This document shows positions 306-54,776 of a stretch of 64,000 nt of DNA, in pieces. The DNA is from Thermoanaerobaculia bacterium (GTDB lineage Bacteria > Acidobacteriota > Thermoanaerobaculia > Multivoradales > UBA5704). The notes under the pieces are model-generated. The model ran no database searches. It was not told the DNA's origin and worked only from the letters and a program-made list of their open reading frames with translations. Both the position numbers and the translations under genes were made by a program. Each line of letters begins with the position of its first letter. Within the stretch, counting starts at the first letter, position 1. Location of the stretch: assembly GCA_035949675.1 (NCBI GenBank), contig DASZHY010000092.1, positions 3,851 through 67,850 of the forward strand, in the 5' to 3' direction.

Positions 306-2741
306 TTGGTAAGCACCGTGGCCAAGAACCTGTTGATCGTCGAAAGCCCCGCCAAGACCCGGACGCTGAAGAAGTTCCTGGGCAAGCAGTACGCCGTCGA
401 GGCGTCGGTCGGACACATCCGTGACCTGGTCAAGAAGGACATGGGGATCGGGCCGCACTACGAGCCGCACTACGAGGTGCTCGCCAACAAGCGCGAGATC
501 GTCAAGAAGCTGCGCCAGGCCGCCAAGCAAGCGGACACCGTCTACCTGGCCCCCGACCCCGACCGTGAGGGCGAGGCGATCGCCTGGCACATCTTCGAGG
601 TGCTCGGCAAGGAGCCGAAGGACGTCCGGCGGGTGACCTTCAACGAGATCACCAAGCACGCCGTGTTGCAGGCGCTCGAGCAGCCCGGCGACATCGACTT
701 CAAGAAGGTCGACGCCCAGCAGGCGCGGCGCGTGCTCGACCGGCTGATGGGATTCCGCCTGTCGCCGCTGCTGTGGGAAAAGGTCAAGCAAGGGCTCTCG
801 GCGGGCCGCGTGCAGTCCGTGGCCCTCAAGATGGTCTGCGACCGGCAGGCCGAGATCGAGGCCTTCGTGCCGCAGGAGTACTGGAACATCGCCGCCGAGC
901 TGGCGGCCGGCGTGCCGCCGCCCTTCACCGCCCGCCTGCACCGCGTCAATGGGGAGAAGGGTAAGAAGGCCGAGGTGGGCAACGGCGAGCAGGCCGCCGC
1001 CATCGTCCGCGATCTCGAGGCCGGCACCTATGTAGTGCGGACCGTCGAGCGCAAGGAGGCGCAGCAGAAGCCGGGCGCCCCGTTCATCACCAGCCGGCTG
1101 CAGCAGGAGGCGGCCAAGCGCTTCGGCTTCTCGGTCAAGCGGACCATGGCGCTCGCGCAGGGCCTCTACGAGGGGCGTGAGATCGGCGACCGCGGCGCGG
1201 TCGGCCTGATCACCTACATGCGCACCGACTCCACGCGGGTGAGCGAGGAGGCGCTGGTCGCGGCGCGCGAGCTGATCGCCGCCACCTACGGCCCTGAGCT
1301 GCTTCCCGAAACCGCCAACCGCTACGCCTCGAAGAAGGGGGCGCAGGACGCCCACGAGGCGATCCGGCCCACCACCTTCGAGCTGCCGCCGGAGGCCGTC
1401 AAGGATTACCTCAAGGCCGACGAGTGGAAGCTCTACAAGCTGATCTGGGAACGCTTCATCGGCTCGCAGATGGTACCGGCGCTCTTCGACGTGACCCAGG
1501 TGGACGTCGCGTGCGGCAAGTACACCCTGCGCGTATCGGGGCGGGTGCTGAAGCGCCCCGGTTTCCTCGCCGTCTACCGCGAGACGCCCGACGAGGATGG
1601 CGCCGCCGCCGCCCCGGCGGGAAACGGCAACGGCAATGGCGACGATCTCGGGGCCGCCCCGGCCTCCCTGCAAGCAGGCGCGGCCCTGCCGCCGCTGCGC
1701 GAAGGCGAGGCGCTCGAGCTGCGGCGGGTGGTCAGCGAGCAGAAGTTCACCCAGCCGGCCGCCCAGTACAACGAGGCCACCCTGGTCAAGGCCCTCGAGG
1801 AGAACGGCATCGGCCGCCCCTCGACCTACGCCAGCATCCTCGCCACGCTGAGCGAGCGGGACTACGCGGAGAAAGTGGACGGGCGCTTCCGGCCCTCCGC
1901 CCTCGGCCGGCTGGTCAACGGCATGCTGCAGCAGGGCTTCCACGACATCCTCAACGAGGGCTACACCGCGGCGCTCGAGGGGCAGCTCGACGAGATCGAG
2001 GAGGGGAATCTCGACTGGCGGCAGGCGGTCGCCAACTTCGACGAGAAGTTCTCGCAGGACCTCGAGGCCGCCGGCGAGCAGATGCCCAACGTCAAGCGCG
2101 AGGGCGTGCCGCTCGACGAGAAGTGTCCCGAATGCGGGTCGCAGCTGCTGATGCGTTTCGGCCGCTACGGCACCTTCGTGGGTTGCAGCACCTATCCGGC
2201 ATGCAAGTACACCCGTGACCTGGAGCCCGCCGGGGCCACGGGCGCCGCGGGAACGCCCGCCGGCGACGGCGGCGCGCAGACCGCGGCCGGCGGCGCGGCC
2301 GGCGATCCGGGGTCGGGCGGCGCCGCTCAGGCGAATGGCACGGCCGCCGAGGAGATCCCTCCCTGCGAGGAGTGCGGCAGGCCGATGGCGCTGCGCCGCA
2401 GCCGCTTTGGCACCTTCTATGGCTGCACCGGCTATCCGGAGTGCAAGGGCATCCGCAAGACCGGTCCCAAGGCCGAGCCTCCGAAGCCGACCGGGGTCGC
2501 CTGTCCGGAGTGCGGCAAGGGCGAGATCGAGGAGAAGCGGTCCCGCCGCGGCAAGCTCTTCTACTCGTGCAACCGCTATCCCGACTGCAAGTTCGCGTTG
2601 TGGAACCGGCCCGTCCAGAAGCCCTGTCCCGACTGCGGCGCCCCCTTCCTGCTGGAGAAGACCACGAAGCGAGCCGGCACCCGCCTGGTCTGCAACACTC
2701 CGGGCTGCGGCCACTCCGAGTCGGTCGAACCCGCGGCCTGA
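306..2741 (+). CDS. topA: DNA topoisomerase I
   Basis: 811-aa ORF with a Toprim N-terminus (LLIVESPAKTRTLKKFLG) and the catalytic region RLQQEAAKRFGFS. It carries four C-terminal CxxC...CxxC zinc-ribbon repeats. Confidence 0.95.
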   Translation: MVSTVAKNLLIVESPAKTRTLKKFLGKQYAVEASVGHIRDLVKKDMGIGPHYEPHYEVLANKREIVKKLRQAAKQADTVYLAPDPDREGEAIAWHIFEVLGKEPKDVRRVTFNEITKHAVLQALEQPGDIDFKKVDAQQARRVLDRLMGFRLSPLLWEKVKQGLSAGRVQSVALKMVCDRQAEIEAFVPQEYWNIAAELAAGVPPPFTARLHRVNGEKGKKAEVGNGEQAAAIVRDLEAGTYVVRTVERKEAQQKPGAPFITSRLQQEAAKRFGFSVKRTMALAQGLYEGREIGDRGAVGLITYMRTDSTRVSEEALVAARELIAATYGPELLPETANRYASKKGAQDAHEAIRPTTFELPPEAVKDYLKADEWKLYKLIWERFIGSQMVPALFDVTQVDVACGKYTLRVSGRVLKRPGFLAVYRETPDEDGAAAAPAGNGNGNGDDLGAAPASLQAGAALPPLREGEALELRRVVSEQKFTQPAAQYNEATLVKALEENGIGRPSTYASILATLSERDYAEKVDGRFRPSALGRLVNGMLQQGFHDILNEGYTAALEGQLDEIEEGNLDWRQAVANFDEKFSQDLEAAGEQMPNVKREGVPLDEKCPECGSQLLMRFGRYGTFVGCSTYPACKYTRDLEPAGATGAAGTPAGDGGAQTAAGGAAGDPGSGGAAQANGTAAEEIPPCEECGRPMALRRSRFGTFYGCTGYPECKGIRKTGPKAEPPKPTGVACPECGKGEIEEKRSRRGKLFYSCNRYPDCKFALWNRPVQKPCPDCGAPFLLEKTTKRAGTRLVCNTPGCGHSESVEPAA

Positions 2742-13436: not shown

Positions 13437-13549
13437 CGGCCCGGCCGCCACCCGTACCACCCTCTCCTGCGCAGTGCAGCGGCGCCGAGGGAAAGGCGCG
13501 ATCGAGCTGAGCGGCCGCCGCAATGCCGCAACCGTGTTTCCTTCGTAAC

Positions 13550-13578
13550 TGAACCTGGCGCCTGTCCCGGTGGACTCA
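13550..13578 (+). promoter_or_regulatory. Putative ECF-sigma-type promoter TGAACC-N17-GACTCA upstream of cupredoxin paralog 1
   Basis: The identical -35/-10 hexamers and spacer length recur upstream of the paralog at 28155..28183. The RBS AAGGAG and ATG at 13609 follow about 30 nt downstream. Confidence 0.35.
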
Positions 13579-13608
13579 AGGGGTGACGTGCCCAAGGAGC
13601 CATCGATC

Positions 13609-15009
13609 ATGCACATAAACCGTGTTTCATCCCCGAGGCGGCTCGCCGCTTTCGGCATCGTTTTCGCGCTGGCGCTCGCTCTCGCGCCGGCATCCCATGC
13701 AGCGAACCACGACGTCAGTGCCACCGCATCGTTGACCTTCGAGCCGGCCAACCTCACGATCAAGGTCGGCGATTCGGTGACCTGGACCAACTCGAGCGGC
13801 GTGAATCACAACGTGGCCGCGAACGACGGCAGCTTCCGCTGCGCCAGCGGTTGCGACGGCGACGGCCACGGCGGCAACGGCAACCCGGCGGGCAGCTGGA
13901 CGTTCACGCGGACCTTCAACCAGCCCGGCACCATCAACTACCTGTGCGAGGTCCACGGCGGCCCTCCCATCTCCATGGTGGGCTCGATCGTGGTGCAGGG
14001 CAGCGCCGCTTCTCCGGGCAGCCTGGACTTCAGCACTGCCGCCGACAGCGTCGCCGAGAACGCCGGCACCGCTCATCTCACCGTCAACCGCAGAGGCGGC
14101 AGCTCGGGGGCGGTGAGCGTCCACTTCGCCACCAGCGACGGCACCGGCGTGGCCGGCAAGAACTACGTCGCGACCTCCGGCACGCTCAACTGGGCCGCCG
14201 GCGACACGGCGGCCAAGACAATCAACGTCGCGGTGCTCGACGACGGCGTTGCGGACGGCGGCCACACCGTCAACCTGACGCTCAGCGCGCCCCAGGGCGG
14301 GGCAAGCCTGGGAACGCCGTCCGCCATCGTGCTCACCATCACCAACACCGACGGCGGCACGGGCGGTGCGCCCGCCGCGCCCTCGAACCTGGCGGCGGCC
14401 AGCGCCGGCACCACCGCCATCAATCTCACCTGGAAGAGCAACTCCAGCAACGAGACCGGCTTCCGCGTGCAGAGCAAGGTGCTCGACGGCAGCCCGTTCC
14501 AGGACGTCCTGCCGCTCTCCCCGGCGGGCAGCACGGGCACCGCTGTAACCGGCTTGCAGCCGGCGACCGGCTACGGGTTCCGGGTGCGCGCGGAGAACGC
14601 GGCCGGCAACTCGGCCTACACCACCGAGGCCGACGCCGCCACCGACACGACGCCCGGCACCTGCGTCGCCGACGCCAACACCCTCTGCCTCGGCGGCCGT
14701 TTCAAGGTCAGCGTTGCCTGGGCGACCAGCAACATGAGCGGCGTGGGGACCACGGTGCCGCTGGCCGCCAACCCGGACTCGGGGCTGTTCTACTTCTTCG
14801 CGTCGAGCAACATCGAGATGCTGATCAAGGTGATCAACGGCTGCGGGCTCAGCAACACCTACTGGGTCTTCTTCGCCGCCACCACCAACGTGCAATTCAC
14901 GGTCACCGTGGTCGACGTCACGACCGGCAAGACCAAGGTGTACTTCAATCCGCTCAACCAGGCCGCGGTGCCGGTGCAGGACACCAACGCCTTCGCCACC
15001 TGCCCCTGA
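13609..15009 (+). CDS. Secreted multidomain protein: type-1 copper cupredoxin + 2 Calx-beta + FN3 + conserved C-terminal domain ending CP
   Basis: Signal peptide present. The cupredoxin region holds ligands His (NHNV), Cys/His (YLCEVHG) and Met (SMVG). Calx-beta motifs are VHFATSDGTGVAGKNY...NVAVLDDGVADG. The FN3 domain is INLTWKSN...YGFRVRAENAAGNS. The C-terminal domain of about 130 aa is shared with 28212..29957 and 61954..62883. Confidence 0.7.
   Translation: MHINRVSSPRRLAAFGIVFALALALAPASHAANHDVSATASLTFEPANLTIKVGDSVTWTNSSGVNHNVAANDGSFRCASGCDGDGHGGNGNPAGSWTFTRTFNQPGTINYLCEVHGGPPISMVGSIVVQGSAASPGSLDFSTAADSVAENAGTAHLTVNRRGGSSGAVSVHFATSDGTGVAGKNYVATSGTLNWAAGDTAAKTINVAVLDDGVADGGHTVNLTLSAPQGGASLGTPSAIVLTITNTDGGTGGAPAAPSNLAAASAGTTAINLTWKSNSSNETGFRVQSKVLDGSPFQDVLPLSPAGSTGTAVTGLQPATGYGFRVRAENAAGNSAYTTEADAATDTTPGTCVADANTLCLGGRFKVSVAWATSNMSGVGTTVPLAANPDSGLFYFFASSNIEMLIKVINGCGLSNTYWVFFAATTNVQFTVTVVDVTTGKTKVYFNPLNQAAVPVQDTNAFATCP
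14233..15009 (+). repeat. Copy 1 of a ~777-bp dispersed repeat (near-identical from about 14330 onward), matching 29181..29957
   Basis: Side-by-side reading of the two gene 3' halves shows only scattered substitutions across the FN3 and C-terminal-domain coding DNA. Identity stops right after the stop codons. Confidence 0.8.
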
Positions 15010-28154: not shown

Positions 28155-28183
28155 TGAACCTGGAGCCTCGCCGCGGGGACTCA
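28155..28183 (+). promoter_or_regulatory. Putative ECF-sigma-type promoter TGAACC-N17-GACTCA upstream of cupredoxin paralog 2
   Basis: Same hexamers and spacing as 13550..13578. RBS AGGAGG and the ATG at 28212 follow. Confidence 0.35.
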
Positions 28184-28211
28184 TTGGATGACGTCCTCAG
28201 GAGGCATCGAC

Positions 28212-29957
28212 ATGTGTAATTACCGTGCTTCGTCCCCGGTGCGGCTTGCCGCTCTCGCCATCGTTCTCGCCGTCAGCGTGGTGCCGGTCTGCCAGGCGAC
28301 GACCCACAACGTGAGCGCCACCTCGTCTCTCTCCTTCGTACCGGCCAACATCACGATCAACGTCGGCGATTCGGTGACCTGGACCAATACCACCGGCGGC
28401 TACTACATGCACAACGTGGTCGCGGACGACGGCAGCTTCCGCTGCGCCAACGGCTGCGACGGCGACGGCCACGGCGGCAACGGCAACCCGGCGACCACCT
28501 GGACCTTCACGCTGACCTTCAACCAGGCCGGCACCGTCAATTACCACTGCGAGGTCCACGGCGGCCCCCCCTACTACATGATGGGCTCGATCACGGTGCA
28601 GGGCGCCTCGACCCCGGGGACGCTCGGCTTCACCACCGCCGCCTACAGTCAGGCCGAGACCGGCGGCCATGCCACCATCACCTTGCAGCGCACCGGCGGC
28701 AGCAGCGGCACCGTCGGCGTCGACTACGCGACCAGCAGCGGCACGGCGGTCGCCGGCACCAACTACACGCCGGCTTCCGGGACCCTCACCTGGGCCGCCG
28801 GGGACACTTCCCAGAAGAGCTTCAACGTGCCGGTGATCGACGACGGCGTCCAGGACGGGACCCACACCGTCAACCTGACGCTCAGCAATGCCACCGGCGG
28901 CGCCTCCGTGGGGCAGGCGTCGGCGGTCCTGTCGATCACCGACAACGACAAGCCCGCCGCCGCCGGCAGCCTGGCGTTCAGCGCCGCCGCCTACAGCGTT
29001 GCCGAGAACGCCGGCACCACCTCGATCACCGTCAATCGCAGCGGCGGCAGCTCGGGGGCGGTGAGCGCCCACTACGCCACCAGCAACGGCACCGGCATGG
29101 CCGGCAAGCATTACACCGCGACCTCCGGCACTCTCAACTGGGGCGCCGGCGACTCGGCGGCCAAGACGTTCAGCGTCGCCGTGCTCGACGACGGCGTCGC
29201 GGACGGCAACCATACGGCCAACCTGACGCTCAGTGCGCCCCAGGGCGGGGCCAGCCTGGGAACGCCGTCCACCGCCGTGCTCACCATCACCAACACCGAC
29301 GGCGGCACGGGCGGTGCGCCCGCCGCGCCCTCGAACCTGGCGGCGGCCAGCGCCGGCACCACCGCCATCAATCTCACCTGGAAGAGCAACTCCAACAACG
29401 AGACCGGCTTCCGCGTGCAGAGCAAGGCGCTCGACGGCAGCCCGTTCCAGGACGTCCTGCCGCTCTCCCCGGCGGGCAGCACGAGCAGCACCGTCACCGG
29501 CCTGTTGCCGGCGACCGGCTACGGGTTCCGGGTGCGCGCGGAGAACGCCGCTGGCGCCTCGGCCTACACCACCGAGGCCGACGCCGCCACCGACACGACG
29601 CCCGGCACCTGCGTCGCCGACGCCAACACCCTTTGCCTCGGCGGCCGTTTCAAGGTCAGCGTTGCCTGGGCGACCAGCAACATGAGCGGCGCGGGGACCA
29701 CGGTGCCGCTGGCCGCCAATCCGGACTCGGGGCTGTTCTACTTCTTCGCGTCGAGCAACATCGAGATGCTGATCAAGGTGATCAACGGCTGCGGGCTCAG
29801 CAACACCTACTGGGTCTTCTTCGCCGCCACCACCAACGTGCAGTTCACGGTCACCGTGGTCGACGTCACGACCGGCAAGACCAAGGTGTACTTCAATCCG
29901 CTCAACCAGGCCGCGGCGCCGGTGCAGGACACCAACGCCTTCGCCACCTGCCCCTGA
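28212..29957 (+). CDS. Secreted multidomain protein: cupredoxin + 3 Calx-beta + FN3 + conserved C-terminal domain (paralog of 13609..15009)
   Basis: Signal peptide present. The cupredoxin site is MHNV...YHCEVHGGPPYYMMG. Calx-beta repeats read VDYATSSGTAVAGTNY and AHYATSNGTGMAGKHY. The last 770 bp are near-identical to 14233..15009. Confidence 0.7.
   Translation: MCNYRASSPVRLAALAIVLAVSVVPVCQATTHNVSATSSLSFVPANITINVGDSVTWTNTTGGYYMHNVVADDGSFRCANGCDGDGHGGNGNPATTWTFTLTFNQAGTVNYHCEVHGGPPYYMMGSITVQGASTPGTLGFTTAAYSQAETGGHATITLQRTGGSSGTVGVDYATSSGTAVAGTNYTPASGTLTWAAGDTSQKSFNVPVIDDGVQDGTHTVNLTLSNATGGASVGQASAVLSITDNDKPAAAGSLAFSAAAYSVAENAGTTSITVNRSGGSSGAVSAHYATSNGTGMAGKHYTATSGTLNWGAGDSAAKTFSVAVLDDGVADGNHTANLTLSAPQGGASLGTPSTAVLTITNTDGGTGGAPAAPSNLAAASAGTTAINLTWKSNSNNETGFRVQSKALDGSPFQDVLPLSPAGSTSSTVTGLLPATGYGFRVRAENAAGASAYTTEADAATDTTPGTCVADANTLCLGGRFKVSVAWATSNMSGAGTTVPLAANPDSGLFYFFASSNIEMLIKVINGCGLSNTYWVFFAATTNVQFTVTVVDVTTGKTKVYFNPLNQAAAPVQDTNAFATCP
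29181..29957 (+). repeat. Copy 2 of the ~777-bp dispersed repeat (see 14233..15009)
   Basis: See copy 1. Confidence 0.8.
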
Positions 29958-45591: not shown

Positions 45592-46905
45592 ATGAGCAAG
45601 CGCCGCAAGTCGCGCCGTGAGGCTGCCGCCGGTGTCGCCGTCCGCACCAGGCGGCCGCGCGGCCGGGCCTGGGGAGCGCGTGCGCGAGGCTTCGGGGCGT
45701 TTCTGCGCGAGTACACGGCGGGCCTCAACCGGCAGGAGATCAAGCGGCTGTTCAACCGCGACGCGGCCAGCGCCTACTCGGTGCTGACGCGCGAGCACGC
45801 CCAGCTGCCCGAGCCGAAGGGCCGCGGCAAGCGCTTTCTGTTCCGCACCAGGCTCGCCTTTCTCGGCCTGTCGTACAAGCTGACGCCGGCGCGGCGCGCG
45901 GTGTTCGCACTGTCGCTGATCTGCCTGGTGATCGCGCTGATGACCGGCGACTCCACGTACACCACGGTGGAGCACGGCCACACCGTCAAGGTCAGCGTCG
46001 ACTTCTCGCCGTTCTGGTTCCTGCTCGCGAGCGGCGGGCTGACCTTCCTGCTGGCGCTCGAGCTGGTCGATCGGGTGCGGGTGCGCGACGAGCTGCAGGT
46101 GGCCCGCGAGCTGCAAGCCGAGCTGCTGCCGCACGGCGCGATCGAGCTGCCGGGGTATCGCGTCGCCCACTCCTACCGCACCGCCAACGAGGTGGGAGGC
46201 GATTACTACGAGGTGATGCCGCTGCCCGACGGGCGGGTGGCGTTGATGGTCGGCGACGCCACCGGGCACGGCATGGCGTCGGGCCTGGTGATGGCGATCG
46301 CCAATGCCACGCTGAAGACCGCCCTCGACCTCGATCCCGACCCGCGGCGGGTGATCGCCGTGCTGAACCGCACCCTTTGCCGCACCGGCACGCGGCGCAC
46401 TTTCATGACCGTCTTCTACGCCCTGCTCGACCCGGCCGCCGGCGGCCTGGTGTTGGTCTGCGCCGGGCACCCGTTCCCGCTGTTGCGCCGCGGCGGCGAC
46501 GGCACGGTCGAGGAGCTCGGGCGCGGCGGCCTGCCGCTGGGCGTGCGCGACGACCTCGCGCCTGAGCCGCAGGCCACGACGCTCGGTCCCGGCGATCTGC
46601 TGGTGCTCTACACCGACGGGCTGGCCGAGGCGGTGAACGCCCAGGCGGAGGCCTTCGGCTACGAGCGCATCGCCGCGCTGACCCGGCCCGGCGGCACGCC
46701 GCAGGAGGTGCACGACCGCATCCTGGCCGCCTTCGACGCCCACGTCGGCGAGGAGCCGCTGCGCGACGACCTGACCCTGCTGGTGATCTCGCGCGAGGGC
46801 GCCGCGCCCCCCGCCGCGATCCGGCCCGTCGATGCGGCCGCCAAGGTGGCGGCGATGGCGGCGGCGATCTCCCGCGGCGCCGGCGGGACCGGCGAATCGG
46901 CTTGA
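45592..46905 (+). CDS. PP2C-family (SpoIIE/RsbU-like) serine phosphatase with N-terminal TM segments
   Basis: GGDYYEVMPLPDGRVALMVGDATGHGMASG...TDGLAEAVN are PPM metal-binding motifs. Confidence 0.8.
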   Translation: MSKRRKSRREAAAGVAVRTRRPRGRAWGARARGFGAFLREYTAGLNRQEIKRLFNRDAASAYSVLTREHAQLPEPKGRGKRFLFRTRLAFLGLSYKLTPARRAVFALSLICLVIALMTGDSTYTTVEHGHTVKVSVDFSPFWFLLASGGLTFLLALELVDRVRVRDELQVARELQAELLPHGAIELPGYRVAHSYRTANEVGGDYYEVMPLPDGRVALMVGDATGHGMASGLVMAIANATLKTALDLDPDPRRVIAVLNRTLCRTGTRRTFMTVFYALLDPAAGGLVLVCAGHPFPLLRRGGDGTVEELGRGGLPLGVRDDLAPEPQATTLGPGDLLVLYTDGLAEAVNAQAEAFGYERIAALTRPGGTPQEVHDRILAAFDAHVGEEPLRDDLTLLVISREGAAPPAAIRPVDAAAKVAAMAAAISRGAGGTGESA

Positions 46906-47687
46906 CCCCCGGGCGCTGGCCGCGAGCGCTCCTGCTGCCGCTGACCGATGCCTGGCGCGGTCTCGACCGCTGTCTCGATCGCGGCGCCTGGGCGGTTTCG
47001 CGGGTCGGCGCCGGCCTGCTCGCCGGCTGGTGGGTCTATGTGCCGGTGCACGAGCTGCTGCACGCCGCCGCCTGCCGGGCGGCCGGCGGCGAGGTGCTGC
47101 GGCTGGAGATCGCGCGGCTCTATGGCGGCGCCGTGCTGGCGCGCCTGCTGCCGTTCGTCGCCGCCGGCGGCGAGTATGCCGGCCGCCTCGCTGGCTTCGA
47201 CACCCACGGCAGCGACCTCATCTATCTCGCCACCGATCTCGGCCCCTTCCTGCTGACGCTCCTGCCGGGAGTGTGGTGGCTGCGCCGCGCCGCGCGCGGC
47301 CGCCGCGCCTTCGCCTTCGGCGCCGCGCTGCCGGTGGCCCTCGCTCCCTTCCTGTCGTTGACCGGCGACGCGTACGAGATCGGGGCGATCCTGATCACCC
47401 GCCTGCCGCCCTGGGCCGGCCCGGCGGCGCGCCGGCTGCTGCGCGGCGACGACCTGTGGCGGCGGCTGCAGGCGATCGCGACGGCAGCGACGACGGCGAC
47501 GACGGCGAAACTTGCGGTGCGGCCGCCGTTGCCCATGTGGCAGCTGTGGCTTGGGGCCGCGCTCGCCGCGGCCGCCGGCCTGGCGTGGGCGCTGCTGACC
47601 TATGGCGCCGGCGCCGCGCTGGCGCGTCTGGCCGGGCAGCCGGCGCTCGACGGAGATCCCTCCGCGGTGAATGGGCGACTGCGGTAG
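46902..47687 (+). CDS. Membrane protein with HExxH motif (putative zincin-like, DUF3267-like)
   Basis: VPVHELLHAAAC lies in a predicted TM context with several hydrophobic helices. The Ala/Arg-rich composition makes the call tentative. Confidence 0.35.
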   Translation: MTPGRWPRALLLPLTDAWRGLDRCLDRGAWAVSRVGAGLLAGWWVYVPVHELLHAAACRAAGGEVLRLEIARLYGGAVLARLLPFVAAGGEYAGRLAGFDTHGSDLIYLATDLGPFLLTLLPGVWWLRRAARGRRAFAFGAALPVALAPFLSLTGDAYEIGAILITRLPPWAGPAARRLLRGDDLWRRLQAIATAATTATTAKLAVRPPLPMWQLWLGAALAAAAGLAWALLTYGAGAALARLAGQPALDGDPSAVNGRLR

Positions 47688-47803: not shown

Positions 47804-47974
47804 TCAACAGTTGAACTTCGTGCAGACGTTGCCGCACGTGTCCGTACAACAGCTCGACGTGCCGCCGCTGCAGGCCGCAGTTCGGACGCCGGCGGCCACC
47901 TGGCTGAACTCGGCCCCGGAGAGGTGGCGCAGCGTCTCCGCGTTCAGCGAGAGCTTCCTTTGGATCTTCTTCAT
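47804..47974 (-). CDS. Orphan 56-aa Cys-rich peptide with double-glycine-type leader (candidate RiPP/bacteriocin precursor)
   Basis: Hand translation of the minus strand gives MKKIQRKLSLNAETLRHLSGAEFSQVAAGVRTAACSGGTSSCCTDTCGNVCTKFNC*. The leader fits LSxxELxxIxGG (with GA). The C-terminal 27 aa hold 6 Cys and 5 Ser/Thr. It is absent from the six-frame ORF track because it is under 60 aa. An AT-rich promoter region lies at 48000..48300. Confidence 0.45.
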   Translation of the reverse strand: MKKIQRKLSLNAETLRHLSGAEFSQVAAGVRTAACSGGTSSCCTDTCGNVCTKFNC

Positions 47975-48338
47975 CGGACTTCTCCTTTTCGACTACGGGT
48001 TATGCGGTGCCAGGCCGCGAGACGAGGGCCGTCCGCATCGCTGGGAGCTCCAGAGCAGCGAATTTTGGAAGCGAGCCTTGGCCAGGGAGCCGGGTGCCGC
48101 GGGTGAAACTAGAAGTATCATCACAGAACTTACAGTCGAACTATCATTTCTAGCAGTTCTACATCCTTTATGAAGACGTTATCAGTCAATACAGATGCTG
48201 TCAATGCTTTAATGACATCATAATTGCATATGGCGCCAATAAGCGCGGCAACGCCACCCGCTACACGGCAGGCGGCGGCTATTCAGATGGAGTTTTGAAC
48301 GCGACGAGGAAGCAGGCGCCGGGGCACACCGGCTCAGG

Positions 48339-49370
48339 TCAAGAGGTGAGCTTCTCCCAGTCCGCGTCCGGGGCGTCGAGCGCGATCGAGAGGCCGCCGT
48401 CGGAGCCGACGAAGACGGGGTCCTTCACCACCTTGACCTTGCCGCCGCCGACCGCCGCCAGCTCCTGCTCGAGGCGCGGTCCCAGGCCACGGATCAAGCC
48501 GGTGCCCCCCGAGACGATGATGTTGTTGCGCACCCTCTCCTGGTACTCGGGCTGCACGCGGGACAGGAGGTCCAGCATCGACTCGACGATCGGCGGCAGC
48601 AGCCCTTCGCAGGCCTGCCGCATCTCCTGGGTGATGTCGATCTGCGTCGGCTTGCCGTTGACCGGCACGGTGACCACGACCGGCGTGCGGGTGTTGCCGA
48701 CGAAGCTCGACTCCTCCTTCCAGGCGCGGACCATGTGGATCGAGAAGCGGGCCTCCGGGAAGCGCTCCCGGGTGAGGCGCGACAGCTGCTCGTCGACCCA
48801 GTCGCCCGCCTGGGTCAGGGTGCGCTGGTCCTCCTCGGCCGGCAGGCGGCCGTTCATGACGCAGAAGTCGGTGGTGCCGGCGCCGAGGTCGATGATCAAG
48901 CTGTGGAGCAGGGCCTCGAGCCCATAGGCCACCGCGAACGGCTCGGAAACGATCATCAGGTTGTCCACCGCGTCCTGCATCGCCTTGCGCACGTTCTGCT
49001 TGTTGACCCGCAGCGCCTCGGCGGGGACGCCGACCACCGCGCGCACCTTCATGCCGTTGCGGGTCTCGCGGGCGACGCCGACCAGCGACAGCAGATGCCA
49101 CAACAGCTCGCGCACCGCCGCCTCGTCCTTCTCCGAGCCGTCCTTGATCAGTCCTTCCTCGAGCGGCCGGTGCAGGTCGAGCATCGAGCGGTTCTCGAGC
49201 GCCTCATGGCCGATCAGCACCGGCTTCTTCAACACCTTGCGCGCCACCATGTCGAGCGGCCACCCGACGTAGCTCTCGACCACGTGGCGCTGCCCGGTGG
49301 AGGCCGAGATCGAGCTGCGCGACGTCCCCAGGTCGATGCCCACGTGGAGAACGGGTTTGCTCTCGGTCAT
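48339..49370 (-). CDS. MamK-like actin-family ATPase (MreB/ParM superfamily)
   Basis: VGIDLGTSRSSIS...SYVGWPLDMV...EPFAVAYGLEALLHSLIIDLGAGTTDFCVMNGRLPAEEDQRTLTQAGDWVDEQL closely parallels MamK (EPFMVGYGLD..IVDIGAGTTDICALKG..PEDQVTLTKAGNYVDERL). RBS AAGGAAG precedes the ATG at 49370. Confidence 0.8.
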   Translation of the reverse strand: MTESKPVLHVGIDLGTSRSSISASTGQRHVVESYVGWPLDMVARKVLKKPVLIGHEALENRSMLDLHRPLEEGLIKDGSEKDEAAVRELLWHLLSLVGVARETRNGMKVRAVVGVPAEALRVNKQNVRKAMQDAVDNLMIVSEPFAVAYGLEALLHSLIIDLGAGTTDFCVMNGRLPAEEDQRTLTQAGDWVDEQLSRLTRERFPEARFSIHMVRAWKEESSFVGNTRTPVVVTVPVNGKPTQIDITQEMRQACEGLLPPIVESMLDLLSRVQPEYQERVRNNIIVSGGTGLIRGLGPRLEQELAAVGGGKVKVVKDPVFVGSDGGLSIALDAPDADWEKLTS

Positions 49371-49417
49371 GCGGTTGGCTTCCTTTCTGATCGGTCCCAT
49401 GATGCGGCGGCGGCCGG

Positions 49418-50470
49418 CTACCCGCCGTTGCCGGCGGCGGCACCGCGGGCGGTGCTGGCGTAGACCCGCAGGCCGCCGGCGAGGGCCTCCGCGATGTACT
49501 GGCGGTACAGCGGCCGCGCCAGCAGCCGCGCCTCGTCGGTGTTGGAGGCGCAAGAGACCTCCGCCAGGATGGCCGGCATGCGGGTCGAGAGCAGCACGAT
49601 GAAAGGGGCCGACTTGACGCCCCGGTCCTCGATCTTCGGATTCACCCTGCCCAGCGACCGGAACAGCGCGCGCTGCACGACCTCGGCGAGCTCTCGCGAC
49701 TTGTCCTGACGGACGCCGGCATAGATACCGTCCAGCAGCTGGCGCATGTCGGCCATCGCGTAGCCGGAGTCGCGGTTCTCGAGCGCCGCCAGCCGGTTGA
49801 GGAACGGATCGTTGGTGGGGCCCAGGTAATAGGTCTCGACGCCGTGCGAGGCGCGGTTCTCGATCCAGTTGACGTGCACCGAGACGAAGACGTCGGCGCC
49901 CGAGCGGTTGGCGATGGCGGCGCGCTCGGCCAGCGACACCGCGCTGTCGCCGCTGCGGGTCATGACGACCTCGAAGTCGTGCTGCGCCTCGAGCAGCTGC
50001 CGCAGGCGGCGCGCGACGTCCAGGGTGATGTCCTTTTCCAGCAGCCCGAGCGGGGTCCTGGTGCCGTGGCTGTCGCCGCCGTGCCCGGCGTCGAGAGCGA
50101 TCCTGCGCACCGCGAGCGGGAGCACCGCGGGGTCGATCGTGGCCGCCCCCTGGGAAACCAGGACGGCGGCGATGGGCGGCGGATTCGCCCTCAGGTCCTG
50201 CCCCGCCCGGACCGCGGAGGTCGCCAGGGTCGCTCCCGGCGGCCGTACCGGCGCCGGCGCGGCGGCGAGCGTCGAGAGCAGCCGCGTCGAGCCGACCAGC
50301 GCCGTCGACGCCAGCAGCAGGGCGAGCGCACCCAGCAGCCGCAGGTACGGAAGCCGGCGCGGAGCGTGCGGGCGATGAATCCGGCCCTGGATGAGCTCCA
50401 CGTTTTGCTGCACCAGGTCGTGCACCAGGCGGCGCTTGAGACGATCGACGTTGGCCTTGGACTGCAGCAT
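49418..50470 (-). CDS. N-acetylmuramoyl-L-alanine amidase (Amidase_3, AmiC-type) lacking an AMIN domain
   Basis: IALDAGHGGDSHG...ADVFVSVHVNWIENRASHGVETYY are Amidase_3 zinc-site motifs. The N-terminus carries a TM/signal region. Confidence 0.8.
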   Translation of the reverse strand: MLQSKANVDRLKRRLVHDLVQQNVELIQGRIHRPHAPRRLPYLRLLGALALLLASTALVGSTRLLSTLAAAPAPVRPPGATLATSAVRAGQDLRANPPPIAAVLVSQGAATIDPAVLPLAVRRIALDAGHGGDSHGTRTPLGLLEKDITLDVARRLRQLLEAQHDFEVVMTRSGDSAVSLAERAAIANRSGADVFVSVHVNWIENRASHGVETYYLGPTNDPFLNRLAALENRDSGYAMADMRQLLDGIYAGVRQDKSRELAEVVQRALFRSLGRVNPKIEDRGVKSAPFIVLLSTRMPAILAEVSCASNTDEARLLARPLYRQYIAEALAGGLRVYASTARGAAAGNGG

Positions 50471-50594
50471 CCCGGCAAACCCGCGGTCAGGGAGCCACCA
50501 GGGGCGAAACCAGACACGCCGCCCGCGGGCCGGGCTACGGTCTAACCTCGCATGGCAAAAAGCTCCAGGGCACAAAAGTGTACTACAGGTCCGG

Positions 50595-52553
50595 TCAGCT
50601 CTTGCCGGTCCTGACTCCGCCCCCTCCGGCCGCCCCGGCTCCGGCCGCCCCAACCGCTCCAGCCTGCGCGCCGATGGCGAAGCGCGCGGTCCCGGTCTGC
50701 GTTCCGGCCGGACCGCTGAGCGTGACCACCAGGCGGTAGGCGCCGGGAACGAGGTGCGGCGGCCGGAAGACCGCCCGCAGCACCGCCGGGCGCGAACCGC
50801 CCCCCGCATCGCGGCTGCCGAGACGCAGCTCGCCGCTCGCCAGGTCGCGGCCGTCGGCGCTCTGGACCACCGCTCGGGCCCTCAACTTGCCGTCCCCCAG
50901 GTTGTAGGCGACCAGCGCCACTGCCGCGTTCTTGCCGGGCGTGAGCGCCGGCAACGAGGCCGGCACGTAGGCACGGCGCCCGACCGTGAACGGGTAGGGA
51001 GCGTCGCGCTGCTCGCCGCGCGGCGGCTCGCGCACCATGGCCCACCTGCCGCCTGCCTCGGGAAAGAAGGGCTGCAACAGCACCGGCCGATCGGCGGTAA
51101 AGGAGGGCACGGTCAGCATCAGGGCGCGCTTGCCGAAGGCTCCCGTGTCGCCGTTGCGTACCAGCGTGCGCACCGAGTACTCGCCGGCCGGCAGCTCGAG
51201 ATGGCCGAAGAACTTCAGCCCGCCGCGCCGTAGCGTCGCCCCGGCTTTGCCGAGATCCAGCCGCAGGATCTGGCCGAAGGAGTCGGCGATGGCGCCGTCG
51301 CCGCCGACGGCGTAGGCGTAGACCTCGGCAGGCAGGTCGGCGCGGGAGCCGCCGGCCAGCAGCGTGGCGCCGTCGGCTTCGACCAGCACCGGCACGTAAG
51401 CCTTGTCCGCAACGCCGCGGAAGGGCGCGGCCAGCACGGCGGTGGCGACCGCCCCCGCGTCGCCGCCGCTCATCAGCTGGTCGCCGGCGGCGAGCCGTCT
51501 GGCGTCGGGCGGCAGCTGGGCATAGGGCAGGCGGCCGTAGAAACCCGGCCGGTGGTCCAGCCGCGCGGCGGGGGGCGCGCCGCTCAGCTCGACGGCGAGC
51601 GGATGGAAGGCGCCGTCGAGCGCGGCGGCCGCCGGGTGGAAGGACAGCAAATAGGTGACGCTGGTCTGCCTGACCAGCCGTGCCATGGCGCGGTCCAGCT
51701 CGCCGCGCAGGTCCGGGAGGTCACCCCGAAGATCGACGGTCGCGACGACGCAGTCCACCCGCCGCAGCTGCTCGGGCACGCCGGCGAGCGGCTCGGGCGG
51801 GGCGCCGGCCGCTGCCGAGAACAGGACCGCCAGCTTGCGCCCCGCCACCGCATCGAGCCCGCTGGCCAGCTCGGACAAGGAGCTCGCCGCGAGGCCCGCG
51901 TCGAGGCGGCCGCGGCTGGCCAGCGAGCGCTGCCGCAGTGCCTCGAGCATGGCCTCCGGCTCGACCTCCGGGGCCGCCGCCGCCCCGGGATCGGCGGCGA
52001 GCGCCAGGCCCGGCAGTGCGGCCCGTAGCTTGGGCGAGGTCAGCCGCAGCTCGTCTTGCTGGCCGTCGAGCAATTCCGGCAAGCCGAGATGCGCGACGGC
52101 CCCGAGGACCTCCCGGCGGTCGGAGGTGAACCCGAGCACCAGCCGCCAGCCCGACTCGCCGTCGAAGGTGGCCACCGCCGCCAGGTCGCCAGGTGCGAAG
52201 GACCCCGGCAGCCACTCGCGCACCGCGCGCGTCGCCGCCAGGATGGCGGTCGGCTCCGAGCCCGCCAGATCGAACAGCAGCAGGTAGCGGCGCCTGGTAC
52301 CGGGCCGCCCGAGATCGACGAAGTCGAAGCCGCTGATGGTCCGCCTGGCGCCGTCTTCGAGCAGCGCGAAATCCGCTGCCGCGAGGCCCCGCACCGGCTC
52401 GCCGTCGAGCAGGACCTGGACGGGGATCTGCACCGCCTCGGGCGGGACGGCTGCCTGCCCGCGGCGCTCGCCTGCCGCCGGCCGGAGCACCAGCGCCAGC
52501 AAGCAGCCGAAGCCGACCAGCACGAGCCCGCTTGGCGTCCACTTGTTCGGCAT
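50595..52553 (-). CDS. Secreted protein with VWA-like N-terminal domain (hypothetical)
   Basis: Signal peptide MPNKWTPSGLVLVGFGCLLALVL. A VWA-like beta-alpha pattern follows (YLLLFDLAGSE...AAVATFDGESGW). The composition is low-complexity and Ala-rich, so confidence is limited. Confidence 0.45.
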   Translation of the reverse strand: MPNKWTPSGLVLVGFGCLLALVLRPAAGERRGQAAVPPEAVQIPVQVLLDGEPVRGLAAADFALLEDGARRTISGFDFVDLGRPGTRRRYLLLFDLAGSEPTAILAATRAVREWLPGSFAPGDLAAVATFDGESGWRLVLGFTSDRREVLGAVAHLGLPELLDGQQDELRLTSPKLRAALPGLALAADPGAAAAPEVEPEAMLEALRQRSLASRGRLDAGLAASSLSELASGLDAVAGRKLAVLFSAAAGAPPEPLAGVPEQLRRVDCVVATVDLRGDLPDLRGELDRAMARLVRQTSVTYLLSFHPAAAALDGAFHPLAVELSGAPPAARLDHRPGFYGRLPYAQLPPDARRLAAGDQLMSGGDAGAVATAVLAAPFRGVADKAYVPVLVEADGATLLAGGSRADLPAEVYAYAVGGDGAIADSFGQILRLDLGKAGATLRRGGLKFFGHLELPAGEYSVRTLVRNGDTGAFGKRALMLTVPSFTADRPVLLQPFFPEAGGRWAMVREPPRGEQRDAPYPFTVGRRAYVPASLPALTPGKNAAVALVAYNLGDGKLRARAVVQSADGRDLASGELRLGSRDAGGGSRPAVLRAVFRPPHLVPGAYRLVVTLSGPAGTQTGTARFAIGAQAGAVGAAGAGAAGGGGVRTGKS

Positions 52554-52748
52554 GACGGCACTGGCGCCGCATGGGTGAACACGAGCCGGAGCCAGACCAG
52601 AGCAACTATACGCCCCGGAGCCGCCGGCTCGATCCGCACGTGCGGCGCGCGTTGGCTGTCAGCCGCACGTGCGGCGCGCGTGGCTGTCAGGCGCACCAGG
52701 GGTGCGCGTGGCCGTCAGGCGCGCGAGCGGAGCGGCGGCGGCGCGCGG

Positions 52749-54776
52749 CTACTTGGCGCGCAGGTGGATGCGGAGCTGGCGTGGCCCGGGCTGGACGCCT
52801 ATCACCTGCACGTCGCGGCTGCCCAGGTCCAGCACGATGTGCAGCTCCTGGGGCGGGTGATAGCCGGTACGGATCTGCAGCAGCTCCGGGGTCCGCACCA
52901 TCAGGCGTGGCGACGGGAAGGGACGGTCGATGCCGGTGATCCGGATCACTTCGCGCACCGGCAAGCCGCCGACCCGGGTCCTGGTGTAGGACTCGTTGGT
53001 GAAGTCGCCATTGCCCCACAGCACGACCTCGGTGCCGTCCGCCACGGGCTGCCAGGTGATCCGCTGCACGGCTGTCAGCCGCGCAGTGGCGCCAGGAGCG
53101 CCGGCGCCGCGCCCGCTGGCGCTGCCGGGCGCCGGCACCGGCTCGAGCACGGCGCGGCCGGCAGACGCCGCCGCCGGCGGTGCCGTCGCCGGCGGGGAGG
53201 CTCCGCGGCCGGCAGCAGGCGTCACCGGCGGCGCCGTCACCGCTGGTGCCGTCACCGTCGGCGTGGCAGCCGACGGCACGGTTGGGGCCGGCGCGGCCGA
53301 GGTGGGTGCGCCCCCGGTCGGCGTCGCCGCTGCCGGCGCGGCCGGGGCGGCTGAGCCCGCCGCGGTCGCCGCGGCCGCTGTCGGCGCGGCCGGGGCGGCT
53401 GAGCCCGCCGCGGTCGGCGTCGCCGCTGCCTGCGCGGTCGGCACGGCCAAGCCGGGCGCGGTCCGGGCCTTGGCGCCGGCGGCGGCCGGGGCCGCCGGGG
53501 CCGCGGACACCGTTTCCGGCTGGGCGGCTTCGCGCCTCTCGATCCATCCCAGCACGGTGTCGCGCAGCAGGTAGACTCCCAGGCCCACGAGGGCGACGGC
53601 CAGCAGCGCGCCGACCAGCGGCAGGCGCGAAGGCCGGCGCGGCGCGCGCAGGTCGAACGACGAGAAGGTGGGAGCCGCGGCCGGCGGCGGCACCTTGGCT
53701 GGCGCCGGCACCTGAGCCGGAGGCAGCGGCGCGCCGGCACCGGCCACGATCTCGTCGAGCGGCGGCAGCGCCGGCACGTCCGGCGCCAGCTCGTCGAGCG
53801 GCGGCAGCGCCGCGGCCACCTGGGCAAGCGGGTCGGCCGCGTGTCCGGCCGGCGCGCCCTCGCCGGTCGCCGACAGTCCGCCAGCTGCTGTCCCGCCGGC
53901 GCCGGCGGCTTCGTCCCCCGCGCCGAGGGACTCGAGCGGCGAGCGGGGAGTGATTGCCGGCACGCCGGGCAGCTGCTGAATCGCCGGGATCTCGAGCCGC
54001 CACGGCAGGGATGACAGATCGTCCTGCGGCGGCGCGGCTGCCGGCCGCGGCGGTGCGGCCGGCGGCAGGCCTGGCGCGCTCATGGCCGGCGGCGGCGCGG
54101 TCGCCGGGGGCGGCGGGCTGGGCGCGCTCACGGCCGGCGGCGGCGCGGTCACGGGCGGCGGCGCGGTCGCGGGCGGCGGCGTTCTCGCCAGGGCCGGCGG
54201 GTCTGGCACCGCGACGACGGGCCGCGCCTCCCTCCCGGGAGCGCGCATTTCGCCGTGGGGCTCCGCGGCGCCGGCCTCGGGTCCGGCCGCCGGCGGCGGG
54301 GTCGGGTCGAAGGGCTTGCCGCCATGCGCCACGTAGTCGTCGACGATCTTGTAGATGAGGTCCTTGCTGCCCGGGCTCAGATCGAGGAACCGGACTCCCA
54401 TGCCGGGCGGCCGCTCCGGCCCCTCGCCCCGCTCGCGCGCCCACACCACCTCGCCGCGTCCACGGATCAACTCGTAGCCGTCGCCCAGCCGGAACTCGAA
54501 CTCGAGCAGCTGTCCCGGCGCCTCCGGGGTGTCCGTGCGGATGAAGATCCCGCCCGGCGAGATGTTGGAGAAATATTCGTTGATGAAGCCGCTGAAGCGG
54601 TCGAACTTGAGCTGGATCCGGTGCGCCAGCGGCACGCGGGTCTGGTCGCGCGGCAGGTTGGAGTAGTCGGTAGCCACCTTGTCGATCCGGATGTCTCGTG
54701 CCGGGTGCGCAGGGCGGTCGGGGCGGCCGGTGGCGGAGGCCCATCGCCCCCAGACGTCCTGCTGATCCGATCCCAT
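52749..54776 (-). CDS. PilZ-domain protein with Pro/Ala-rich linker, TM segment and C-terminal AMIN-like domain
   Basis: PilZ motifs RDQTR (RxxxR) and NISPGG (D/N-x-S-x-G-G). A Pro-rich APP repeat linker is followed by TM helix LPLVGALLAVALVGLGVYLL. The C-terminal domain of about 110 aa (TAVQRITWQPVADGTEVVLWGNGDF...LHIVLDLG...LRIHL) is AMIN-like. Confidence 0.6.
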   Translation of the reverse strand: MGSDQQDVWGRWASATGRPDRPAHPARDIRIDKVATDYSNLPRDQTRVPLAHRIQLKFDRFSGFINEYFSNISPGGIFIRTDTPEAPGQLLEFEFRLGDGYELIRGRGEVVWARERGEGPERPPGMGVRFLDLSPGSKDLIYKIVDDYVAHGGKPFDPTPPPAAGPEAGAAEPHGEMRAPGREARPVVAVPDPPALARTPPPATAPPPVTAPPPAVSAPSPPPPATAPPPAMSAPGLPPAAPPRPAAAPPQDDLSSLPWRLEIPAIQQLPGVPAITPRSPLESLGAGDEAAGAGGTAAGGLSATGEGAPAGHAADPLAQVAAALPPLDELAPDVPALPPLDEIVAGAGAPLPPAQVPAPAKVPPPAAAPTFSSFDLRAPRRPSRLPLVGALLAVALVGLGVYLLRDTVLGWIERREAAQPETVSAAPAAPAAAGAKARTAPGLAVPTAQAAATPTAAGSAAPAAPTAAAATAAGSAAPAAPAAATPTGGAPTSAAPAPTVPSAATPTVTAPAVTAPPVTPAAGRGASPPATAPPAAASAGRAVLEPVPAPGSASGRGAGAPGATARLTAVQRITWQPVADGTEVVLWGNGDFTNESYTRTRVGGLPVREVIRITGIDRPFPSPRLMVRTPELLQIRTGYHPPQELHIVLDLGSRDVQVIGVQPGPRQLRIHLRAK

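Follow-up and report, generated by a model that had tools for sequence, protein, structure and literature searches.

A MamK-family actin encoded directly behind a membrane-anchored peptidoglycan amidase: a candidate cytoskeletal system for positioning cell-wall cleavage

The 64,000-nucleotide stretch analyzed here (the window; contig DASZHY010000092.1 of assembly GCA_035949675.1) stems, by its best matches, from a chromosome of Thermoanaerobaculia, Acidobacteriota, with a G+C content of ~70%. On its minus strand it carries the gene for a MamK-family actin-like ATPase (343 residues, 48339..49370), directly preceded by the gene for a bitopic N-acetylmuramoyl-L-alanine amidase (350 residues, 49418..50470). 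We consider it moderately likely that the two proteins constitute an undescribed cytoskeleton system, in which a filament of the MamK-family actin positions the amidase and so decides where the wall is cut, because a MamK-related actin is encoded directly behind a membrane-anchored amidase in at least four phyla; the site of wall cutting is thus probably set by the actin–amidase system. No literature description was found of an actin–amidase pair, of a PilZ–AMIN protein or of an amidase–actin module.

Four open reading frames (ORFs) make up the cluster in the window, and all four are present on the minus strand, as an earlier note made from the letters of this DNA had listed them. They are transcribed in the order PilZ-TM-AMIN protein (where TM is a transmembrane helix), VWA-related protein, amidase and actin, with intergenic gaps of 195, 124 and 47 nt, the shortest lying between amidase and actin. 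On this strand the amidase is read before the actin, which closes the cluster; the earlier note correctly saw the two genes as adjacent but reversed their order.

The linkage of amidase and actin was followed by tblastn of the window proteins against 80 genome loci. Wherever the sequence of a related locus reaches far enough, the gene immediately before the actin is the amidase. Beyond the class, the pair is kept in an Acidobacteriota metagenome-assembled genome (MAG; 69% identity), in Nitrospira (51% identity, with the two ORFs overlapping by 53 nt), and in Desulfobulbaceae and Defluviicoccus, and an amidase stands upstream of the actin in 14 of 80 metagenomic MamK-family loci. The pair therefore spans four phyla, often with overlapping ORFs, and the genes around it are unrelated between the Acidobacteriota MAG, Nitrospira, Desulfobulbaceae, Defluviicoccus and the metagenomic loci. 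No amidase neighbor was seen at the more distant MamK-family members that were checked (Gemmatimonadota, Nitrosomonadaceae, Verrucomicrobiota and others). The conserved core is a cytoskeleton–hydrolase module of two genes, amidase and actin. The earlier note had grouped all four genes into one module and had proposed a comparison of gene neighborhoods; that comparison bears out the amidase–actin core, but it reduces the PilZ–AMIN gene (found at 61–69 loci) to a class-specific accessory and finds the VWA gene at none of the 80 loci.

The assignment of the actin to the MamK family, rather than to MreB, is clear from every comparison made. Against NCBIfam it scores 378.2 bits with the MamK model, 208 with BeeR, a tubular actin of Verrucomicrobiota (PMC11929497), and 68 with MreB. 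The MamK cutoff of 400 (NF040964) is narrowly missed, with a full-length alignment (residues 8–342 against positions 1–331 of 335 in the model), whereas the MreB models fall far short of theirs (68.5 bits against 293 for PRK13927 and 56 against 366 for TIGR00904). The same ranking is obtained with structures in the PDB (MamK 5ljw, 275 bits, E = 5e-81; BeeR, 136 bits; MreB, 41 bits, E = 1e-9) and with BLASTP identities (40% to MamK, 30% to BeeR and 24% to MreB), and the phosphate-1, phosphate-2 and SEPF motifs of the actin align with those of MamK. At the level of the family, the earlier note's view that the 343-residue protein is closer to MamK than to MreB was right (378 against 68 bits; 40% against 24% identity). 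Orthologs that are 76–99% identical occur in 80 genomes of Thermoanaerobaculia and other Acidobacteriota.

Within the family, the amidase-linked actins stand apart. In a neighbor-joining (NJ) tree of 102 actins labeled by gene context, all 24 of the amidase-linked actins sampled form one clade that has no other members (bootstrap 85%) and that includes sequences from Acidobacteriota, Nitrospira, Desulfobulbaceae and Defluviicoccus. MamK of Magnetospirillum magneticum AMB-1, the MamK-like protein of AMB-1 and the actins of two further loci (L173 and L174) form their own clade (90%), apart from the amidase-linked actins, and the latter are likewise separate from BeeR and from a large radiation of actins with coiled-coil upstream partners. 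The phylogeny that the earlier note had suggested places the actin firmly in the MamK superfamily, which is split from MreB with 100% bootstrap; its "MamK-like" label holds for the family but passes over the separate, amidase-linked clade. Judged by sequence, the actin belongs to a distinct subfamily within the MamK family, the amidase-linked one, and not to MamK proper. Thousands of clusters at 90% identity fall in the clade, and some of its members are labeled "MamK family actin-like protein" by NCBI. A first NJ tree, built from representatives at 50% identity, was set aside: its backbone support was near zero, and the clade could not be placed relative to MamK proper or BeeR. As a separate observation, many MamK-family representatives (P0134–P0146, P0148, P0151, P0152 and P0159) are 700–1232 residues long, carry the actin domain at their extreme C-terminus and group closely as one clade in the NJ tree.

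The amidase consists of a cytoplasmic helix, a TM helix and a periplasmic Amidase_3 domain (Pfam PF01520, E = 4.5e-46). Read from the N-terminus, an amphipathic helix that we call the N-box (KANVDRLKRRLVHDLVQQNVELIQGR; 50381..50458, minus strand), a candidate actin-binding tag, is followed by a basic stretch and a single TM helix (LRLLGALALLLASTALVGS; 50288..50344, minus strand), which by the positive-inside rule would place the helix inside and the catalytic domain outside. The catalytic domain (49469..50101, minus strand), delimited by Pfam, alignment and conservation, includes an insertion of ~35 residues of the AmiA/B/C regulatory type: the protein is collinear with Escherichia coli AmiA (8c2o) and AmiC (4bin) across the regulatory-helix insertion, and alignments to short amidases split in two around it. 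Across 96 amidase orthologs, 19 of them from outside Thermoanaerobaculia, there is no variation in the H/E/H/E residues of the active site (the zinc ligands and the catalytic glutamate) or in an AAxEN motif that lies within the insertion. By its catalytic residues and its regulatory-helix insertion, the enzyme is assigned to the AmiA/B/C-like subtype of Amidase_3. It does not, however, bear out the label "AmiC-type" that the earlier note had given it: scores are far below the NCBIfam cutoffs for AmiA, AmiB, AmiC and CwlD (AmiC NF038267, 92 bits against 700), the enzyme itself has no AMIN domain, and its N-terminus is a cytoplasmic helix plus a TM helix and not a signal peptide. Since the regulatory insertion is kept, the activity of the amidase is probably gated as well as positioned.

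The layout of N-box, basic stretch, TM helix and Amidase_3 domain recurs in the amidases of Nitrospira, of locus L081 and of metagenomic loci (for example ILRGVYEENLRI). The conserved N-terminal helix has the consensus MANVDRIKRQLLRDLVQQNVDLIxGR, after which come the basic stretch and the TM helix, and the N-box is conserved in 70 Thermoanaerobaculia amidases and in all 12 amidase partners taken from other lineages. Its pattern can be written as hydrophobic-hydrophobic-x-[D/E]-hydrophobic-[F/V/Y]-x-x-N-hydrophobic-x-hydrophobic. At their very C-terminus, unrelated coiled-coil proteins whose genes lie directly upstream of other MamK-family actins show the same short pattern (for example LMQEIFQLNMQL and LLKDIFKQNLKI). 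The recurrence was measured with a first regular expression, which was built from four sequences and then applied to 80 loci fetched afterwards. In the six reading frames of the 64-kb window it has a single match, at the N-terminus of the amidase; three other loci contain one match apiece, and each of these lies in the upstream partner. On the 80 independent loci it gave 17 matches, 17/17 of them on the strand of the actin and in the gene directly upstream, where they lie 4–72 residues from the stop of that gene or at the N-terminus of an amidase; since such positions make up ~10% of the search space, the placement is far beyond chance. With a looser expression, 52 of 62 matches fall in ~10% of the search space (binomial P = 1.5e-41), and 51 of the 70 loci whose flank is long enough contain the motif.

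What links an actin-like filament to its cargo is commonly a short helix or peptide in a partner encoded with it, as in ParM–ParR, FtsA and the C-terminal peptide of FtsZ, and MreB/RodZ. The N-box is a candidate filament-docking helix, or binding tag, because the same motif recurs in unrelated upstream partners of MamK-family actins. The coiled-coil partners have no match to a Pfam family; in the largest radiation of the MamK family these partners have a longer signature in common at the C-terminus, SIYRxVQGL...KKxLMxxIFxxNLxL (loci L094, L096, L100, L103, L104, L105, L107, L114 and others), and look like an undescribed adaptor family. A separate observation concerns locus L173, where a 46-residue ORF (599–739, plus strand) lies directly upstream of a MamK-proper-like gene, 60% identical to MamK of AMB-1, and contains VVDLYRRDINLEL, which is N-box-like and one residue out of register.

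In Thermoanaerobaculia the pair is joined by a third gene, that for the 675-residue PilZ-TM-AMIN protein (52749..54776, minus strand), with a cytoplasmic PilZ domain, Pro/Ala-rich linkers, one TM helix and a periplasmic AMIN domain. The PilZ domain (54339..54650, minus strand) matches Pfam PF07238 (E = 2e-12; 47.7 bits against a cutoff of 22.5) and TIGR02266 (E = 2.5e-22; 78.9 against 68.7) and contains the motifs R43DQTR47 and N71ISPGG76 for binding of cyclic diguanylate (c-di-GMP). The RxxxR and [D/N]xSxxG motifs are intact in 61/61 orthologs, from which we infer that the domain is a c-di-GMP receptor. PilZ and AMIN are encoded in one ORF at 61 of 63 loci, and a hydropathy scan of all orthologs places one TM helix between them in each (LPLVGALLAVALVGLGVYL; 53568..53624, minus strand). 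The C-terminal domain (115 residues, 52752..53096, minus strand) escapes the Pfam AMIN model (PF11741), which gives no match even at E ≤ 10. A profile of 62 sequences of this domain does, however, match an AMIN domain of Myxococcus xanthus PilQ (3jc8, residues 207–299) with E = 2.5e-4, and an AlphaFold2 model built on a 13-row alignment, with a predicted local distance difference test (pLDDT) score of 94, finds as its top three Foldseek matches the AMIN domains of AmiC (4bin) and PilQ (4av2/4aqz), with probability 1.00 and TM 0.59–0.64. Profile and predicted structure together confirm the AMIN fold, and the earlier note's reading of PilZ and an AMIN-like domain in one protein holds by PilZ models, profile and fold, with only the Pfam AMIN model silent. 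The gene lies upstream of the amidase in 61–69 Thermoanaerobaculia loci and is an accessory specific to that class. As assigned by domain, the parts of an AmiC-like enzyme are there split over two membrane proteins, and the one bearing AMIN also carries the predicted cytoplasmic receptor for c-di-GMP.

These elements suggest the following mechanism. The MamK-family actin, given its family and its intact ATPase motifs, would polymerize in the cytoplasm; the amidase would be held in the inner membrane by its single TM helix, its catalytic domain would lie in the periplasm, and its N-terminal, amphipathic N-box of ~30 residues would face the cytoplasm and bind the filament. By gathering or positioning the amidase, the filament would set where stem peptides leave the peptidoglycan, for daughter-cell separation or for local remodeling of the wall, and the regulatory insertion of the AmiA/B/C type would probably gate the activity as well. 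In Thermoanaerobaculia, the added PilZ-TM-AMIN protein would bind (septal) peptidoglycan through its periplasmic AMIN domain and may couple the system to c-di-GMP through its cytoplasmic PilZ domain. The earlier note's suggestion of a filament-linked, possibly c-di-GMP-responsive module for peptidoglycan remodeling, outside any magnetosome context, fits this comparative evidence, but with a core of only two genes. A wider proposal, plausible and a shade short of one we would favor, is that the N-box serves as a general docking helix for non-magnetosome filaments of the MamK family and has been acquired by different cargo, at the N-terminus of amidases and at the C-terminus of coiled-coil proteins. 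If so, the amidase-linked clade would be an actin cytoskeleton dedicated to positioning a wall hydrolase in at least four phyla. In Thermoanaerobaculia, a "split AmiC" would then connect it to c-di-GMP: a PilZ receptor would carry AMIN, and the enzyme bound to the filament would carry the catalytic domain.

Several observations weigh against this picture. The looser expression was tuned after the test set had been seen, and a hidden Markov model made from the Thermoanaerobaculia N-box peptides alone missed the coiled-coil partners and found the L081 amidase only weakly (E = 0.12); that model is too narrow, and the identity of the motif across families therefore rests on the regular expressions. 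No N-box was found upstream of MamK proper (L173, and L175 from AMB-1). The trees are NJ only and their backbone, the deep branching order, has no resolution; because the actin falls in a clade of its own and that order is without resolution, it is filed here as a member of a distinct subfamily. The PilZ–AMIN gene is missing at some Thermoanaerobaculia loci, two of which (L014 and L015) carry an RdgC-like gene in its place, and from all other phyla examined, and control by c-di-GMP is therefore not intrinsic to the module.

The strongest rival explanation, which we regard as unlikely, makes the amidase an anchor rather than cargo: its TM helix and wall-binding periplasmic domain would fix the filament to the envelope, and the filament would position some unlinked cargo (an organelle, the nucleoid or a protein complex), as MamK does with magnetosomes. 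MamK-family filaments are indeed known as cargo-positioning tracks (PMC10653835, PMC11929497), and the coiled-coil proteins that bear the same motif beside other family members are adaptor-like and not enzyme-like. A purely structural anchor, however, would not need the H/E/H/E residues and the regulatory insertion that are invariant in the 96 orthologs across phyla, and no candidate cargo gene is conserved beside the pair outside Thermoanaerobaculia (in the Nitrospira, Desulfobulbaceae and Defluviicoccus loci).

Far less probable is that the adjacency is inherited synteny without functional coupling, with an actin that works alone, perhaps shaping the cell as MreB does, and an amidase of the ordinary cell-separation kind. 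The wider neighborhood in Thermoanaerobaculia is also syntenic, including the gene hyp261 and, in close relatives, those for SpoIIE, PlsB and saccharopine dehydrogenase, as this explanation would have it. Against it, the pair persists in four phyla, often with overlapping ORFs and in entirely different surroundings; the amidase-linked actins are monophyletic; the cytoplasmic motif of the amidase is common to partners of other MamK-family actins; and MreB models score the actin far below cutoff. Least credible of all is a magnetosome-type MamK, either as a leftover gene or as a component of a cryptic acidobacterial magnetosome system, since the similarity to MamK (the highest among characterized actins) and the NCBI name on some clade members are met by a score below the NCBIfam MamK cutoff, a position outside the clade of MamK and the AMB-1 MamK-like protein (90%) and a lack of magnetosome-type genes among the ~30 window genes or in the flanks of related loci.

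The remaining gene of the cluster (50595..52553, minus strand) encodes a 652-residue VWFA-related protein with a hydrophobic N-terminus, and lies between the PilZ–AMIN and amidase genes. It passes the cutoff of TIGR03436 (acidobact_VWFA, annotated as a subfamily_domain model) narrowly, with 87.4 bits against 81.25, and has no Pfam match; TIGR03436 is a large paralogous expansion in Acidobacteria. The earlier note's VWA-like protein is supported to this extent by the model. Its metal-ion-dependent adhesion site (MIDAS) is degenerate (FDLAGS instead of DxSxS), and tblastn gave 0 matches to the gene in 80 related loci. The PilZ–AMIN gene abuts the amidase gene there, and the VWA gene is therefore an insertion specific to this lineage. 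Elsewhere, a different TIGR03436 protein lies upstream of the amidase and actin in locus L081 (2149–5142), and a weak VWA protein lies upstream of the mamK-like gene of M. magneticum AMB-1 (AP007255.1; L175, 2308–4638). The occurrence of VWA-type proteins upstream of a MamK-family actin, or of the amidase–actin pair, in three unrelated lineages could be a coincidence or a recurrent association; in the window the gene is a late, incidental insertion, and the recurrence is not treated as module membership.

The wider window is that of an ordinary chromosome. The ~30 genes scanned include topA, hslVU and genes for glutamate dehydrogenase, a MacB-type ABC transporter, a PlsB-like protein, a PP2C phosphatase, saccharopine dehydrogenase and an O-antigen-ligase-like protein, and none of them is of magnetosome type, just as the earlier note had remarked of the surroundings of the actin. 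Rfam gave 0 matches in the window, and a scan of the cluster for promoters and terminators returned a single promoter-like site, on the opposite (plus) strand at 48120–48147, and no terminator-like site. The G+C content of the region of the actin gene (48001–50000) is 0.67, against 0.72–0.77 around it, as would fit a highly conserved protein whose amino acids are strongly constrained.

Directly downstream of the actin, a 56-residue ORF with a strong ribosome-binding site (47804–47974, minus strand) encodes MKKIQRKLSLNAETLRHLSGAEFSQVAAG followed by a Cys-rich core, VRTAACSGGTSSCCTDTCGNVCTKFNC; it looks like the leader-plus-core precursor of a ribosomally synthesized and post-translationally modified peptide (RiPP) or of a bacteriocin. 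An AT-rich stretch lies nearby (48105–48240), and locus L002 encodes two peptides that share the leader type of this ORF. Convergent with the actin is the hyp261 gene (46902–47687, plus strand), which encodes a membrane protein of 261 residues that contains an HELLH (HExxH) motif and weakly matches DUF3267, "putative zincin peptidase". It is kept at the same position in most Thermoanaerobaculia loci and not in other phyla, and in the window the start of this gene and the stop of the PP2C (SpoIIE-type) phosphatase gene upstream of it overlap. Farther away, two paralogs (13549–15009 and 28158–29957, plus strand) combine cupredoxin (plastocyanin/azurin-like), Calx-beta and fibronectin-III domains.

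Few bacterial actin systems have a known cargo, and for the relatives of MamK outside magnetotactic bacteria, BeeR and Bbp, there are structures or distributions while the function is not known. Here the partner can be read from the genome context: an enzyme that cuts the wall and has a cytoplasmic handle. The function of a large environmental clade thereby becomes directly testable. The shared partner motif offers a way to predict adaptors for many uncharacterized MamK-family actins. The module would be an actin-based counterpart to the recently described bactofilin–hydrolase morphogenetic module, and its PilZ–AMIN protein points to a possible new route of c-di-GMP control over wall cleavage.

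Among known systems, that of MamK and MamJ in the Magnetospirillum magnetosome chain shares the actin family. MamJ, an adaptor that tethers cargo to MamK, is encoded directly upstream of mamK (PMC10653835), as the partner gene is here. The two differ in that the actin of the window belongs to a separate clade without magnetosome genes nearby, that the N-box was not found upstream of MamK proper, and that the upstream partner is a bitopic peptidoglycan amidase rather than an acidic magnetosome protein. BeeR and Bbp ("big bacteria protein"; PMC10580974) are likewise MamK-related actins of non-magnetotactic bacteria whose cellular roles are not known (PMC11929497, PMC10580974). BeeR, however, is 30% identical to the window actin and branches apart, and neither paper reports an amidase neighbor. 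ParM–ParR, FtsA–FtsZ and MreB–RodZ involve other actin families and other partners, and there is no DNA-segregation context here.

On the side of the enzyme, E. coli AmiA, AmiB and AmiC share with the amidase of the window the Amidase_3 domain, the same zinc ligands and catalytic glutamate and an insertion collinear with the regulatory helix, and in both systems an AMIN domain takes part. In contrast to them, the amidase here has no signal peptide or Tat export, is anchored in the membrane with a cytoplasmic tail and scores far below their cutoffs, and AMIN is carried by another protein, of the PilZ-TM type, instead of by the enzyme itself. The closest analog in the way it would work is the pair of the bactofilin BacA and the M23 endopeptidase LmdC in Hyphomonas neptunium and Rhodospirillum rubrum (PMC10945521), although it has no component in common with the actin–amidase module. 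In both, the gene for a polymer adjoins that for a bitopic peptidoglycan hydrolase, the pair is kept across phyla, and binding is proposed or shown to depend on a short, conserved cytoplasmic tail at the N-terminus (PMC10945521). The polymer differs, however, being an ATP-dependent actin here and a nucleotide-independent bactofilin there, as do the hydrolase (Amidase_3 against M23 peptidase) and the tail (an amphipathic helix against a β-hairpin).

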